From Escherichia phage DCP548: a DNA stretch of 64,000 bases. A program made the position numbers and the translations under genes. Positions 2,748-32,507 of the stretch are shown here, one piece after another. The notes under the pieces are model-generated. The model was not told the DNA's origin. It did no database searches and saw only the letters and a list, made by a program, of their open reading frames with translations. Where the stretch lies: sequence record PQ671645.1; one strand, written 5' to 3'. Every line of letters starts with the position of its first letter. The first letter of the stretch is position 1.

Positions 2748-2808
2748 GTTAATTTCCTCTTGATTTGTTATGTTTATAGTATCTTATTTTAACTTTGGTG
2801 TAAACCAA

Positions 2809-3198: not shown

Positions 3199-3235
3199 TA
3201 GAAAGATAGTAACACATTATGTAGTGCTTGTAAAC
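3199..3235 (-). promoter_or_regulatory. early promoter upstream of lipoprotein gene
   Basis: Minus GTTTAC, about 18 nt, TACTAT. Confidence 0.4.
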
Positions 3236-3237
3236 AG

Positions 3238-3450
3238 CTATTTTAAACTTTTGCGAAATTTGCGTTTTTCTTGACGAATCTGTCGTTTAGTCGGACGTAC
3301 AGCAAATTTAACGAAGTCCACTTTGCCGTGTGGAAACTTTTCAGATGCTTCACAGTCCATCATTAGTTCCCATCCTTCCAGAATAAGAGCTTTCCATTGC
3401 GTAGTTGATGCAAATTCGTATGTCGATGGTTTAAACACAGTTGAATACAT
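3238..3450 (-). CDS. small basic protein, member of a three-copy paralog family
   Basis: 70 aa ending ...FAVRPTKRQIRQEKRKFRKSLK; same C-terminal motif as ORFs at 31248..31427 and 31852..32049. Confidence 0.5.
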   Translation of the reverse strand: MYSTVFKPSTYEFASTTQWKALILEGWELMMDCEASEKFPHGKVDFVKFAVRPTKRQIRQEKRKFRKSLK

Positions 3451-3451
3451 A

Positions 3452-3643
3452 TTATCCTCTTAAATCGGCTTCAAAAACTTTCTCGTCATTAACAAATGCT
3501 TTAACTAATGCTTTGTTCACTTCAGCAAGTTGTACCGCAACCCACTCGATTTCTTCGCGATCACCTGATAACATGATATCTTTAGTGAACATCTCGCCGC
3601 TTTTAAACCAACCGATAAAAGTAACTTTAGTTAATTTGCTCAT
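3452..3643 (-). CDS. dmd: Dmd-like antitoxin (discriminator of mRNA degradation)
   Basis: 63 aa, VTFIGWFK...AEVNKALVKAF resembles remembered T4 Dmd (61.5); position upstream of 61. Confidence 0.6.
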   Translation of the reverse strand: MSKLTKVTFIGWFKSGEMFTKDIMLSGDREEIEWVAVQLAEVNKALVKAFVNDEKVFEADLRG

Positions 3644-3957
3644 ATTTCCTCACAGAATGCCCATTCAGCATGATAAACTGTAGCACCTTTAGTATCATTC
3701 ATTTGAACTACATCTACCGGAGAAATTACTCGATAGAGTCGTGGTTCACCTCCATAAGAGCGTGCTGCTCGTCCTGCATAAATCTTTGCTAAACCGATAT
3801 CTTCAGTAAAGAATACACGATCCAAGTTTTTCTTACGTCCAGTTTCGGACAGAACTCCTGTTTCTTCAGGAGGACAAAGCATGTTTTCGATGTTAGCTGA
3901 ACTACTTGAACCGTGATAAAAAATCTTAAATTCTGCTTTACAATCGATGGTTTTCAT
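3640..3957 (-). CDS. Arr-like ADP-ribosyltransferase-fold protein
   Basis: 105 aa; FYHGS...RVFFT...YAGRAARSYGGEPRLYRV parallels rifampin-ADP-ribosyltransferase motifs (FYHGT ... IYFS ... YIYIVEP); own early promoter upstream. Confidence 0.45.
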   Translation of the reverse strand: MKTIDCKAEFKIFYHGSSSSANIENMLCPPEETGVLSETGRKKNLDRVFFTEDIGLAKIYAGRAARSYGGEPRLYRVISPVDVVQMNDTKGATVYHAEWAFCEEI

Positions 3958-3963
3958 TTTGTT

Positions 3964-4012
3964 CTCCAGTAGTTGATAGGTCTATAATAACACAACTACT
4001 GGAGAAGTAAAC
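3964..4012 (-). promoter_or_regulatory. early promoter with 12-bp inverted repeat, upstream of Arr-like gene
   Basis: Minus GTTTAC, 17 nt, TATTAT; perfect inverted repeat CTCCAGTAGTTG / CAACTACTGGAG flanks the -10. Confidence 0.55.
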
Positions 4013-4387
4013 TTAAAAATGTAATTTAGATACATCTGCGTTGATTTCACTTTGGTTTGCGTCATATGCAATTAAACGAACCGCTTTAGATGGGTCATTC
4101 AATGCATAGAAATGATGGAACATTGCTCGAACGATATCACCATTTACGAGTTCTACCTGGATAGGAGAACCTTTTTCGAGTTGGAAATGTTCATAAGCTT
4201 TGATGGTTCGCAGATAATCAAGTTTTTGATTTCCGGCTCCAACGATTTGTACGATACGTTTGCCCATGTTTTCCATACGAGATACAATAGTTTTAGGAGC
4301 AAGAATAACGTAGGTTGCCAGCGGAGAAACTACTTCAACAGTTGTGTTTTCGGTGATTGCAGTAAAAATTGCTTGAGACATATTCAT
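4013..4387 (-). CDS. hypothetical protein
   Basis: 124-aa minus ORF, ATG at 4387 with GAGAGG RBS; early promoter upstream. Confidence 0.5.
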   Translation of the reverse strand: MNMSQAIFTAITENTTVEVVSPLATYVILAPKTIVSRMENMGKRIVQIVGAGNQKLDYLRTIKAYEHFQLEKGSPIQVELVNGDIVRAMFHHFYALNDPSKAVRLIAYDANQSEINADVSKLHF

Positions 4388-4416: not shown

Positions 4417-4446
4417 ATCATATCATGCCTAGAGGGAGATGTAAAC
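4417..4446 (-). promoter_or_regulatory. early promoter upstream of ORF 4013..4387
   Basis: Minus GTTTAC, spacer, TGaTATGAT extended -10. Confidence 0.5.
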
Positions 4447-28925: not shown

Positions 28926-30739
28926 TGGTGTTTAACCCTATGCATGATTTCTTTATTTTTGCCGAGATTAAATCCGCGTTCGTTAGGATTTCCAAGATAA
29001 CCGCATGTTCTTCTTATGGTGTTCATCTTTTTAGGGTCAGTTTCTCCACAAATAGAACAAACAAATCCGGTTTCAGTAGGAGTCATTTCATGAGTACTTC
29101 CACATGTAAAACATTTATCTACTGGCATATTAACACCAAAATAATCTAAATGTTGTGCAGCATAATCCCATACAGCCTCAAGACCTTTTAGGTTATTTTT
29201 CATATCAGGAAGTTCAACATAAGAAATATGTCCGCCAGTCGCAATGAAATGATATGGGGCTTCGCGAGAAATCTTTTCAAACGGAGTGATATTTTCTTCT
29301 ACTGAAACATGGAAACTATTAGTGTACCAGCCTTTATCAGTAACATCTTTTACACTTCCATATTTCTCGGTATCAAGTTTACAGAAGCGATAGCACAGGT
29401 TTTCAGCAGGAGTAGAATACAAGCTAAAAGCAAAACCGGTTCTTTCAGTCCACTGCTTAAGACGAGCATTCATTTTGGTCAAAATTTCCTGTCCAATATC
29501 ACGTCCGACAAGAATATTCAATTCGTGAATACCAATGTATCCTAAAGACACTGAACTTCTACCGTTTTTAAATAACTCAATTATATCGTCATCAGGTTTA
29601 AGACGAACCCCAAATGCACCTTCTTGGTAAAGAATAGGAGCAACTGTTGCTTTAACACCTTTTAAAGAACTAATTCTACACATCAAGGCTTCAAAACACA
29701 GATCCATTCGTTCATTAAATAGCTCATCAAATTTCTGTTCATTGAATTGTGTTCCAATATAAGAATCTAACGCAATACGAGGAAGATTCAGTGTTACAAC
29801 ACCAAGATTATTACGTCCATCAAGAATTTCATTTCCAGTCGAATCTTTCCATACACTCAAGAAACTACGACAACCCATTGGAGAAACAGGAATAGATGAA
29901 CCAGTGATAGCTTTATTGTTCTTAACTGAAATAATATCAGGATACATTCTTTTGCTTGCACACTCTAGAGCAAGCTGCTTAATATCATAGTTCGGGTCGT
30001 CTTTATAAAGATTGACACCCTCTTCAATGAACATAACAAGTTTAGGGAAAATAGGAGTTATTCCATCACGACCAAGGCCTTTAATGCGGTTTTTAAGAAT
30101 TGCTTTCTGAATAATTCGTTCAGTCCAGTCAGTTCCAGTACCAAATGTAATTGTTACAAAAGGCGTTTGACCGTTTGAGCTAAAAAGAGTATTTACTTCA
30201 TACTCATAAGCTTGAAATGCATCGTATACGTCTTTTTCTGTTTTAGATTGGGCGTAATTCAACGCATCAGCGATTTGCCATTTTTCTGCATCCTCAATAT
30301 GTTTTGCATAGGTGCGTTTAACATAAGGAGAAAGTACTTTATCTACATTAGCAAAAGTCGTTCCGCCGTACTGATGTGAAGCAACCTGTGCGGTAATTTG
30401 TGCCATAATTGCAGTAGCAACACCAATCGATTTAGGCGTTTCAATTTGAGCATTGCCTAATTTAAATCCATTCTCAAGCATCCCCTTTAAATCGACTAAA
30501 CAGCAATTAGTAAATGGAAGAGCAGGGGAATAATCAATATCATGGAAATGGATAATTCCGCTTTCATGTGCTTTCATAATAAAAGACGGGACCATATTTT
30601 TGGCAATGTGCTTAGACACAATACCAGCCATAAGGTCCCGTTGAGTTGGAAAAACACGAGAATCTTTATTAGCATTCTCGTTCAAAAGATCTTTATTAGT
30701 TTTATGAATTAATCCTTCAATTTCTTTTTCAATTTTCAT
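28922..30739 (-). CDS. nrdD: anaerobic ribonucleoside-triphosphate reductase NrdD
   Basis: 605 aa; C-terminal zinc site CFTCGS...CSICG and glycyl-radical motif RRTCGYLG; uninterrupted. Confidence 0.93.
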   Translation of the reverse strand: MKIEKEIEGLIHKTNKDLLNENANKDSRVFPTQRDLMAGIVSKHIAKNMVPSFIMKAHESGIIHFHDIDYSPALPFTNCCLVDLKGMLENGFKLGNAQIETPKSIGVATAIMAQITAQVASHQYGGTTFANVDKVLSPYVKRTYAKHIEDAEKWQIADALNYAQSKTEKDVYDAFQAYEYEVNTLFSSNGQTPFVTITFGTGTDWTERIIQKAILKNRIKGLGRDGITPIFPKLVMFIEEGVNLYKDDPNYDIKQLALECASKRMYPDIISVKNNKAITGSSIPVSPMGCRSFLSVWKDSTGNEILDGRNNLGVVTLNLPRIALDSYIGTQFNEQKFDELFNERMDLCFEALMCRISSLKGVKATVAPILYQEGAFGVRLKPDDDIIELFKNGRSSVSLGYIGIHELNILVGRDIGQEILTKMNARLKQWTERTGFAFSLYSTPAENLCYRFCKLDTEKYGSVKDVTDKGWYTNSFHVSVEENITPFEKISREAPYHFIATGGHISYVELPDMKNNLKGLEAVWDYAAQHLDYFGVNMPVDKCFTCGSTHEMTPTETGFVCSICGETDPKKMNTIRRTCGYLGNPNERGFNLGKNKEIMHRVKHQ

Positions 30740-31209
30740 TTTAAACTCTTTCTAAGCTGCTTTTTGAATGAAGCTATTAATTGTGTTTTGGTATCAGATT
30801 CATTATATTCAAATCCTCTTTGAAGCATCTCAGCCATCATTTCCTCTTTACCTAGTCTTGAGAACTCTTTAGTTTTGTCTGGAACAAAATTAGGATGGAT
30901 ATTATTATCAGAATAATCTTGTTTCAAATAAGCAAGAAGAGCTTCAAGCCATTCGAGGTAGTCGACATCACGTCCTTTAAGACCGGAACGGTTGAACTTA
31001 TGCTTCATTTGGCCTTCTGCTGCGTTGCACAGATTACAGAGTAATCCACGAACTCTACCGGCTTTTGGCCCGTTTAATTCATGGTCGTGGTCAAGATGGT
31101 TACCTTGAACATCAGGGTCTAATTCACGGTGGCAAATAGGACACTTACCATTCTGTGCATCATAAAATTTTTGTTTTTCTTCTTTGTATAATTTGCCAGA
31201 TAATAACAT
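30736..31209 (-). CDS. 49: endonuclease VII (Holliday-junction resolvase) gp49
   Basis: 157 aa; MLLSGKLYKEEKQKFYDAQNGKCPIC...HLDHDHELNGPKAG matches remembered T4 endo VII. Confidence 0.93.
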   Translation of the reverse strand: MLLSGKLYKEEKQKFYDAQNGKCPICHRELDPDVQGNHLDHDHELNGPKAGRVRGLLCNLCNAAEGQMKHKFNRSGLKGRDVDYLEWLEALLAYLKQDYSDNNIHPNFVPDKTKEFSRLGKEEMMAEMLQRGFEYNESDTKTQLIASFKKQLRKSLK

Positions 31210-31215
31210 AATAAA

Positions 31216-31245
31216 CCCTTACCATATTAGATAAGGGTATTTATA
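31216..31245 (-). promoter_or_regulatory. gene 49 leader hairpin overlapping a late-promoter-like TATAAATA
   Basis: Stem CCCTTA...TAAGGG at 31216..31237 next to the RBS; minus-strand TATAAATA at 31245..31238. Confidence 0.5.
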
Positions 31246-31247
31246 AT

Positions 31248-31427
31248 TTAATAAATGTTATAAAAGTCACGATGGAAACGTTTGTATTGGCGAATCATTC
31301 TTTTAGTAGGACGTGTTACCGAAATGATTGAAGTCCTCATGTTCGGATTGTTTGGAGCACCAATTATAACAAATTTCCAAGATTTTTGACCGTTTGTTCT
31401 TTCGCCAAAAAATAATGCAGTTTTCAT
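31248..31427 (-). CDS. small basic protein, paralog-family member (59 aa)
   Basis: Hand-found; ...VTRPTKRMIRQYKRFHRDFYNIY; below track cut-off. Confidence 0.4.
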   Translation of the reverse strand: MKTALFFGERTNGQKSWKFVIIGAPNNPNMRTSIISVTRPTKRMIRQYKRFHRDFYNIY

Positions 31428-31436
31428 AATAAGCCC

Positions 31437-31850
31437 TTAACTTAAACGTCTTTCTAAATATTCAATGTATTCCGCTGCGGCTTGCATCAGATTACCTTCA
31501 TAACCGTCATTATTTTCTTGGGCGGCTAATTTAGCTAAAGCATAAGAAATACGTTCACCTTCGAATTCGCCAAGTCCACCATCACAAACTACTTGGTCAA
31601 TTTCTTCGAGTTCATCTATTGAATGGGATTCCCAGAAGCACCAAAGAGAAGTATCACGGTCATAGATGCAAAGTTTCTCACCTGTGTTCAACATCACTTC
31701 GATAATGCCATGGTCGCCATAACCATCTTCGGTAGTAGTACCAATTACCTTGATGATCGTATCTTTCTTTAATTCAGGAAACTTATCTTGGAGTTCTTCG
31801 TCTTCTTTAACAATCTTGAACCATTTACCGCGAGTTTCAGAAATATTCAT
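31437..31850 (-). CDS. hypothetical acidic protein
   Basis: Track ORF trimmed to ATG at 31850 (MNISETRGKW...) because the upstream part overlaps ORF 31852..32049. Confidence 0.45.
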   Translation of the reverse strand: MNISETRGKWFKIVKEDEELQDKFPELKKDTIIKVIGTTTEDGYGDHGIIEVMLNTGEKLCIYDRDTSLWCFWESHSIDELEEIDQVVCDGGLGEFEGERISYALAKLAAQENNDGYEGNLMQAAAEYIEYLERRLS

Positions 31851-31851
31851 A

Positions 31852-32049
31852 TCAATATTCTCTATAAAAGTTACGATGGGAACGTTTAGCTTTGCGAAGC
31901 TGACGTTTAGTAGGACGAACTGTAAATGGTTGTCCAGAGAAAAAATTCGGATCGGTTTTAATAAGCAAATACCAATCATGCTTGCCATTTTTTAATAAAC
32001 GGTACAATAATTTAACTTGCATAATAATCTCTTCCCATTTCCATATCAA
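31852..32049 (-). CDS. small basic protein, paralog-family member
   Basis: 65 aa ending ...FTVRPTKRQLRKAKRSHRNFYREY. Confidence 0.45.
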   Translation of the reverse strand: MIWKWEEIIMQVKLLYRLLKNGKHDWYLLIKTDPNFFSGQPFTVRPTKRQLRKAKRSHRNFYREY

Positions 32050-32150
32050 TTAATTCATTTATTGAAGGTTCATCATAACACGTTTCTTCGTCATTGTAAA
32101 CTGTTTCGACGTCTGGCTCGACTGTCTCCCATCGAGCCGAATACCACGGT

Positions 32151-32507
32151 TTAACCCCGGAGTTTATTGAGCTCTTCATAATCAATCCAGGATTCTAGTC
32201 CGGATGGCAGGTCACATTCAATGTTCCACAGAAGCTCTTCAATGGCTTGCAGGCGATTATATTCTTCAACGGTAATGGTAACCATTGGTGCAACCGGTTC
32301 TGCCTTTTTAACCATCATATCGTTCATCAGGACGTAAAGGTCATCACGAACGACAGTGTCGTTCCAACCCCATGATTTGGCTTCGTAAGCTAATGATGAA
32401 GGGAGCACATTTAAAACTTCAATAATAGTTGGAGCATCAGGACCAAGTTCATTGGCACAAACTTCGTATACATCTTGGAAATCTTTAAGATTTAATGAAT
32501 ATGTCAT
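32151..32507 (-). CDS. hypothetical acidic protein
   Basis: 118-aa minus ORF. Confidence 0.45.
   Translation of the reverse strand: MTYSLNLKDFQDVYEVCANELGPDAPTIIEVLNVLPSSLAYEAKSWGWNDTVVRDDLYVLMNDMMVKKAEPVAPMVTITVEEYNRLQAIEELLWNIECDLPSGLESWIDYEELNKLRG

Follow-up and report, generated by a model that had tools for sequence, protein, structure and literature searches.

A Mosigvirus genome carries three genes for small basic proteins of a single family, and one of the three is a counter-defence gene that has already been characterised. Within the 64,000-nt window, the whole stretch of DNA that was analysed, sequence and gene order identify ORF1 as tifA, the orthologue of T4 gene 61.4. Both the ORF1 protein and the function of its basic motif are known from published work, so the motif is not new. 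The other two genes, ORF2 and ORF3, are placed by sequence comparison among the TifA-family (DUF7279) paralogs and not with TifA proper. Taken as a whole, the results are probably best explained by one TifA family in which ORF1 is TifA and ORF2 and ORF3 are RNA-binding paralogs that engage another partner in counter-defence. The finding is largely explained by existing work, and its remaining interest lies in the minimal paralogs as a test of how an RNA tether chooses its target.

Three genes of one family in a T4-type phage

The window belongs to a T4-type phage of the genus Mosigvirus (RB69/JS09-like), with 98 to 99% identity to Mosigvirus phages around both loci of interest, tifA and the pin region. 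ORF1, ORF2, and ORF3 were found on the minus strand at the positions given in Table 1. The initial annotation had described three ORFs with a common basic tail, and this description was borne out. The pattern RP[TS][KR][KR] occurred in 3 of 1,278 six-frame segments of at least 25 aa in the window, namely, ORF1, ORF2, and ORF3 alone. All three proteins also matched one Pfam family, PF23945 (DUF7279), scoring 72.1, 53.8, and 54.5 bits, respectively, against a gathering cutoff of 24.5 (E values of 3.5e-20, 1.8e-14, and 1.1e-14; 47 to 51 residues matched). Searching all six-frame segments of the window with the regular expression and with a profile HMM of the three proteins revealed no fourth copy (next best E value, 0.82). 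ORF1 was assigned to phrog_2375, and ORF2 and ORF3 were assigned to phrog_3272. The positions first given for ORF1 (3238..3450) and ORF2 (31248..31427) stand, but the upstream end given for ORF3 (32049, a TTG) does not; the start of ORF3 is most likely the ATG at 32022 (MQVKLL..., as annotated in JS09 and RB69).

The three proteins had also been described as having different N-termini, and here the annotation has to be corrected. The Pfam match, a three-way alignment, and BLASTP all indicate that ORF1, ORF2, and ORF3 are homologous over the whole ~50 aa, tail included. The alignment revealed a common N-terminal strand, a conserved Trp-x-[LV]-x-I strand, and a third strand, followed by the invariant R-P-T-K-R. 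By BLASTP, ORF3 was 36% identical to ORF2 over its full length (E value, 4e-11), and ORF2 was 44% identical to T4 TifA over 41 aa (E value, 9e-7). Alignment and a search for the tail motif among relatives, proposed in the initial annotation as a check, recovered the family signature [RK]-P-T-K-[RK]-[QM]-[ILV]-R-[QK]-x-K-[RK]-x-[FH]-R in 42 of the 42 motif-bearing sequences tabulated (39 database relatives and the three window proteins).

A HMMER search against 1.84 billion cluster representatives returned only 28 clusters at E ≤1e-3, which indicates that the DUF7279 family is small; every member with a source name or annotation came from a phage. We propose here, from the sequence matches, that DUF7279 is the TifA family. 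No paper in the literature searched names DUF7279, and no NCBIfam model matched. The only match in a profile search of PDB sequences was a chance one to eL29 (E value, 0.95), and no match under an E value of 0.9 came from Foldseek with the TifA model against the PDB; the ORF2 model, searched against BFVD, matched only small uncharacterised proteins from T4-like phages (S16, CBH8, and Merlin), at E values of at least 0.015. These PDB and Foldseek searches thus yielded no solved relative and no informative fold match. In many distant DUF7279 members (P0021, P0022, P0027, P0032, and P0034), the basic helix is followed by a further conserved C-terminal motif, (W/F)E(N/D)SWEGIHCD[IV]xGL, which takes an IDVLG form in P0040 and P0041. 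This possible second module is absent from the three window proteins and from T4 TifA.

Table 1. Positions of the tifA locus, the pin locus, and associated sequence elements in the 64,000-nt window
Feature	Position	Strand	Basis
tifA (ORF1; T4 gene 61.4 orthologue), 70 aa	3238..3450	-	Pfam DUF7279, 72.1 bits; tblastn; published TifA_RB69
PT-capped basic helix of TifA, codons R52-R66 (RPTKRQIRQEKRKFR)	3253..3297	-	PMC10853763 mutants; AF2 model
dmd (antitoxin versus RnlA/LsoA), immediately 5' of tifA, same direction	3452..3643	-	Pfam Dmd, E 3e-21; annotated Dmd in APCEc01
105-aa ORF 5' of dmd	3640..3957	-	
Candidate early promoter, TTTACT-16-TATTAT with TG, upstream of the 105-aa ORF, dmd, and tifA	3984..4011	-	Consensus scan only
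124-aa ORF 5' of dmd	4013..4387	-	
TTTACA-17-TA(C/T)(T/G)AT sites before small genes	3206..3234, 2776..2804, 4417..4445, 32072..32100	-	Consensus scan only
Terminator-like hairpin (ACCCTTATC...GGTAAGGGT; ACCCTTA...TAAGGGT, then T-run), between ORF2 stop and gene 49 start	31215..31238	-	
ORF2 (= RB69ORF087c), 59 aa, compact TifA paralog, between pin and gene 49	31248..31427	-	Pfam DUF7279; phrog_3272; CDS in JS09
ORF2 tail, codons R39-R53 (RPTKRMIRQYKRFHR), within copy 1 of the 55-nt direct repeat	31269..31313	-	
55-nt direct repeat, copies 1 and 2	31259-31313, 31863-31917		
pin (PinA, host Lon protease inhibitor), flanked by both paralogs	31437..31850	-	Pfam Inhibitor_I24, E 3.4e-47; JS09 annotation
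ORF3 (= RB69ORF089c), 56 aa, compact TifA paralog, between 49.1 and pin	31852..32022	-	Pfam DUF7279; phrog_3272; CDS in JS09
ORF3 tail, codons R36-R50 (RPTKRQLRKAKRSHR), within copy 2 of the 55-nt direct repeat	31873..31917	-	
Initiation-region repeat (gene 49, ORF2, ORF3)	31207-31226, 31425-31444, 32020-32039		

The conserved element is the protein

Is the similarity of the tails a property of the proteins or of the DNA? The tail-coding DNA had been reported as similar, and this was confirmed: identity was 65 to 69% over 48 nt (16 codons) in every pair of the three genes and reached 80% over 55 nt between ORF2 and ORF3. The initial annotation had itself named the opposing explanation, a common non-coding DNA repeat read in a chance frame, with frames not conserved in relatives. 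A direct repeat does lie at the 3' ends of ORF2 and ORF3, and it recombines. However, homology spans the whole proteins, the product of ORF1 has been studied experimentally, and in pairs with ORF1, the codons differ at four to five identical residues of the motif. The frames are intact and unchanged in length in diverged genera, namely, Mosigvirus, Tequatrovirus, Gaprivervirus, and Carettavirus (the last with the ORF3-type hybrid gene only, in phiE142). Nei-Gojobori dN/dS values across relatives were 0.06 to 0.25, with dS up to saturation (ORF2, 0.06 to 0.25; ORF3, 0.10 to 0.12 versus NicPhage), indicating that ORF2 and ORF3 are under purifying selection. A repeat in a chance frame is ruled out by these dN/dS values, the synonymous codon differences, and the full-length homology, and we assign it practically no probability. 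A Shine-Dalgarno-like sequence precedes the start of each of the three genes (for tifA, AAGAGGA, 5 nt before the ATG). Repeat and coding are both true in part, and what is conserved is the protein.

ORF1 is TifA

In tblastn searches, ORF1 was 57% identical to the gene annotated as gp61.4 or "10.2 kDa protein" in Tequatroviruses. It differed from TifA_RB69 at a single residue, T16 versus S16, in a comparison with Table S2 of PMC10853763 (a machine-read copy in which the tail has small gaps). Orthology together with a position after dmd was found for ORF1 only; ORF2 and ORF3 are remote homologs that flank pin. TifA_RB69 resembles ORF1 in its length of 70 aa, in its place after dmd, and in having no T4-type C-terminal extension.

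The new name given to T4 gene 61.4, tifA, stands for ToxN inhibitory factor A. Amplification of dmd-tifA, a two-gene early operon in T4, allows T4 to escape the type III toxin-antitoxin system toxIN (Srikant, Guegler & Laub, eLife 2022; PMC9391042). ToxN is neutralised by the TifA protein and not by its mRNA, and TifA co-precipitates with ToxN (PMC9391042). [quoted passage not shown] An enterococcal protein also named "TifA" inhibits type IV restriction and is unrelated.

Structure and RNA binding were addressed by Guegler et al. (NAR 2023; PMC10853763). An AlphaFold model of TifA has a three-stranded sheet on a C-terminal helix and a protruding loop of ~20 residues, and the basic helix with its Pro-Thr cap is kept across 57 homologs. 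Synthetic TifA_RB69 bound RNAs of 45 to 15 nt with a KD of 0.36 to 2.3 uM. RNA binding and ToxN neutralisation by the same protein depend on P53, T54, K55, R56, and R59, and P53A T54A abolishes both. TifA alone co-purifies with cellular RNA; together with ToxN and RNA, it assembles into a high-molecular-weight complex in which 16S rRNA is enriched. In AlphaFold models, the long loop sits close to the active site of ToxN; how strongly ToxN is inhibited depends on the loop between the second and third strands, where substitution of residue 41 alters the effect, and this loop is not conserved beyond close relatives (PMC10853763). For ORF1, the initial annotation was therefore right to suggest a nucleic-acid-binding tail, a function already published for TifA_RB69 (PMC10853763).

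Our AF2 model of ORF1 (mean pLDDT, 76.8) has strands at residues 2 to 6, 27 to 33, and 43 to 49 and a helix at residues 55 to 69, the last modelled at a pLDDT of ~88 to 91; residues 19 to 23 are of low confidence. Its topology is that of the published model, three-stranded sheet, C-terminal helix, and ~20-aa loop, and both the long loop and the residue-41 loop are present. The AF2 models of ORF1 and ORF2 were built on shallow alignments of 10 to 12 sequences.

Among the sequence clusters retrieved, one (P0007; 26 member sequences, on contigs of up to 157 kb) represents a natural TifA variant that is 97% identical to ORF1 and reads VRLTKRQ for VRPTKRQ, so that the helix-capping Pro is replaced. 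Given the effect of P53A T54A on TifA_RB69, this variant may be weakened or non-functional.

Two ORFs lie 5' of dmd, of 105 aa and 124 aa; neither has a Pfam match, and both are hypothetical in relatives. The 105-aa ORF overlaps the start of dmd by 4 nt. Both ORFs fall within the possible anti-TA island (Srikant et al.) and may encode additional antitoxin-like proteins. T4 has an early promoter upstream of dmd, and by analogy the promoter-like site 5' of the 105-aa ORF is a candidate early promoter. Of the TTTACA-17 sites that the scan found on the coding strand, one follows the tifA stop immediately, and another falls within 49.1, ahead of ORF3.

ORF2 and ORF3 keep the RNA-binding residues and lack the ToxN-facing loops

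Existing annotation lists ORF2 and ORF3 (RB69ORF087c and RB69ORF089c) as no more than hypothetical proteins. Neither was among the ten TifA homologs assayed in PMC10853763, the word "paralog" does not occur in PMC9391042, and a search of the later TifA literature found no study of the pin-flanking paralogs. All three window proteins share R-P-T-K-R-x-[IL]-R, that is, the Pro-Thr cap and the equivalents of K55, R56, and R59. The five residues required for RNA binding by TifA are all kept in ORF2 (P40, T41, K42, R43, and R46) and in ORF3 (P37, T38, K39, R40, and R43). A nucleic-acid-binding tail, as first suggested, is hence predicted for both paralogs as well. A capsid-targeting or localisation signal was considered for the tail and set aside in view of the published mutants, which tie the motif to RNA binding.

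The AF2 model of ORF2 (pLDDT, 87.7) has the TifA topology, with strands at residues 2 to 9, 15 to 22, and 31 to 36 and a helix at residues 42 to 58; from the 36% full-length alignment, we infer a similar fold for ORF3. The loops differ from those of TifA. The first and second strands of ORF2 are linked by a 5-residue turn (residues 10 to 14) in place of the ~20-residue loop, and in the alignment and the ORF2 model the loop between the second and third strands is shorter and different in ORF2 and ORF3. Both ToxN-contact loops, the long loop and the residue-41 loop, are thus missing in their TifA form from ORF2 and ORF3, and it is for this reason that we file the two proteins apart from TifA.

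At the pin locus, ORF2 adjoins gene 49, which encodes endonuclease VII. The hairpin between them is a putative terminator in the ATK47 annotation; its stem is kept in relatives, and its loop varies (TAATATG versus TATTTAAG). This may be the counterpart of the T4 hairpin that regulates translation of gene 49. The translation-initiation regions of gene 49, ORF2, and ORF3 consist of a short repeat that reads, on the coding strand, TAAGGG(T/C)TTATTATG or GGAAGAGATTATTATG.

The paralogs are patchily distributed and recombine around pin

The gene order 49.1-ORF3-pin-ORF2-49 was found in the window, JS09, and RB69. APCEc01 lacks ORF2; RB33, PP01, and several hundred Tequatrovirus and related genomes have an ORF2-type gene and no ORF3; and T4 has neither. 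ORF2 lies beside pin in 367 phage records. ORF2 and ORF3 were present or absent independently among close relatives, a patchy distribution that fits the status of accessory genes. We considered a functional coupling of the paralogs to pin and set it aside, since ORF2, ORF3, and pin each occur without the others in relatives. The nrdC-to-gene-49 interval as a whole (30736..32507, compared with L001, L003, L004, L006, and L010) is a hot spot of gene content among T4-like phages, in which ORF2, ORF3, pin, 49.2/49.3, and ORF091c vary independently; pin is fragmented in VR7.

The two copies of the 55-nt direct repeat at the 3' ends of ORF2 and ORF3 (80% identity) lie 604 nt apart and bracket pin. 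In the pin-less phages phiE142, 348Ecol098PP, and SHSML-52-1, a single 56-aa gene lies directly upstream of gene 49 (L005, 1501-1671; L012, 901-1071; L013, 901-1071). The latter two phages are complete Mosigvirus genomes of ~170 kb, and phiE142 is filed under Carettavirus. The gene is a hybrid that follows ORF3 through the ...HR(N/D)FY region and then has an ORF2-type ending, N[VI]Y*, and an ORF2-type hairpin. The switch from ORF3 to ORF2 falls within the 55-nt repeat, and so the tail-coding DNA also serves as a site of recombination by which the pin cassette is lost or, in reverse, was gained. The exact point of the switch differs slightly between phages, which suggests recurrent recombination between the paralogs.

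Possible functions of ORF2 and ORF3

What might the compact paralogs do? In the mechanism shown for the RB69 protein, the basic helix of TifA binds RNA and the protein contacts ToxN, giving an inert ToxN-TifA-RNA complex, and toxIN abortive infection fails. Judging from their retained residues, ORF2 and ORF3 would bind RNA through the same PT-capped tether helix. Their altered loops may serve a partner other than ToxN, or they may engage ToxN differently; the partner would most likely be another RNA-targeting host effector, and the two genes would then be additional counter-defence accessory genes. Six diverged TifA homologs neutralised none of seven type III toxins (six ToxN homologs and TenpN; PMC10853763), so membership in DUF7279 does not predict ToxN inhibition, and a role of the paralogs in defence is one that we infer. 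TifA also binds ssDNA and dsDNA in vitro with similar affinity (PMC10853763), so that the in vivo ligand of ORF2 and ORF3 could differ. Their place beside pin, outside the dmd/tifA/adfA "anti-TA island," lends no contextual support to an anti-toxin role.

One possibility is that ORF2 and ORF3 are additional ToxN inhibitors, either redundant or specific for variants such as ToxN K111N/R, Y115H, and L118S that escape TifA, giving the phage a three-member anti-ToxIN arsenal. The three proteins form one family with identical RNA-binding residues, but the paralogs lack the ~20-aa loop and their residue-41 loop is shorter and different, and AlphaFold models and mutants point to these loops as contacts for ToxN. 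Plasmid-borne toxIN restricts RB69 much less than T2, T4, and T6 (PMC9391042), as an arsenal would predict, but plasmid-expressed RB69 TifA alone already accounts for the stronger inhibition. T4, which is without either paralog, needs tifA amplification to escape. However, RB69 carries both paralogs and is still restricted by TifA-escape ToxN mutants (PMC10853763), which argues against the paralogs merely backing up TifA, and none of the ToxN proteins tested was inhibited by other full-length TifA homologs. Taking these points together, we consider additional ToxN inhibitors very unlikely. ORF2 and ORF3 could instead be general RNA-, ribosome-, or nucleic-acid-binding proteins for phage gene expression (mRNA stability, translation, or host shut-off) with no specific immune target. 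The sole characterised member of the family is an anti-defence protein, and the patchy occurrence of the paralogs among near-identical phages, with T4 lacking both, is typical of host-range accessory genes and not of core expression factors. Such a role is therefore unlikely, although the conserved basic helix, the minimal putative specificity loops, the strong purifying selection, and the RNA that TifA and its complex carry along (the latter enriched in 16S rRNA) would all agree with it. If the paralogs only duplicate TifA or bind RNA generically, the present result is a routine improvement of annotation.

The explanation that we prefer remains one TifA family with RNA-binding paralogs directed at another partner. 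A more general version, which we offer tentatively and think has a minor chance of being right, is that DUF7279/TifA is a modular "RNA-tether" whose invariant helix anchors to abundant RNA and whose variable loops choose the host effector, with ORF2 and ORF3 neutralising non-ToxN defence RNases. The targets might then include other type III toxins and HEPN or tRNA-targeting nucleases, RB69-type phages would carry a three-member RNA-dependent anti-toxin family, and the repeated 3' ends would also let recombination shuffle the pin cassette in and out.

TifA is among the few phage counter-defence proteins known to tether a host toxin to RNA. ORF2 and ORF3 amount to a natural dissection of it, with the RNA helix and all of its binding residues kept and the ToxN-facing target loops gone. 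At 59 and 56 aa, they are cheap and directly testable candidates against other RNase-based defences. In addition, the anonymous Pfam family DUF7279 and hundreds of "hypothetical protein" entries beside pin in T4-like genomes are now linked to a published function.

Comparison with known systems

PF23945, phrog_2375, and phrog_3272 are database entries with no functional annotation, and all three window proteins score well above the Pfam threshold. Compared with TifA, ORF2 and ORF3 have the same three-stranded sheet and C-terminal helix, the PT cap, and the RNA-binding K/R residues, but they are 11 to 14 residues shorter and ~28 to 35% identical. TifA ends in FRKxxK, whereas ORF2 and ORF3 end in HRxFYxxY; tifA adjoins dmd, whereas ORF2 and ORF3 flank pin ~28 kb away.

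Dmd (T4 61.5) and AdfA (61.2) are, like TifA, small early accessory proteins that neutralise toxins and are encoded in the same "anti-TA island," with dmd co-operonic with ORF1. In sequence and mechanism they are unrelated to TifA: Dmd is a direct protein antitoxin of RnlA/LsoA, whereas TifA needs RNA as a third partner. An analogy drawn by Guegler et al. (PMC10853763), mechanistic only and without homology, is to the HIV-1 Vif-APOBEC3-RNA "molecular glue," in which a viral antagonist likewise needs RNA to disable a host antiviral enzyme.
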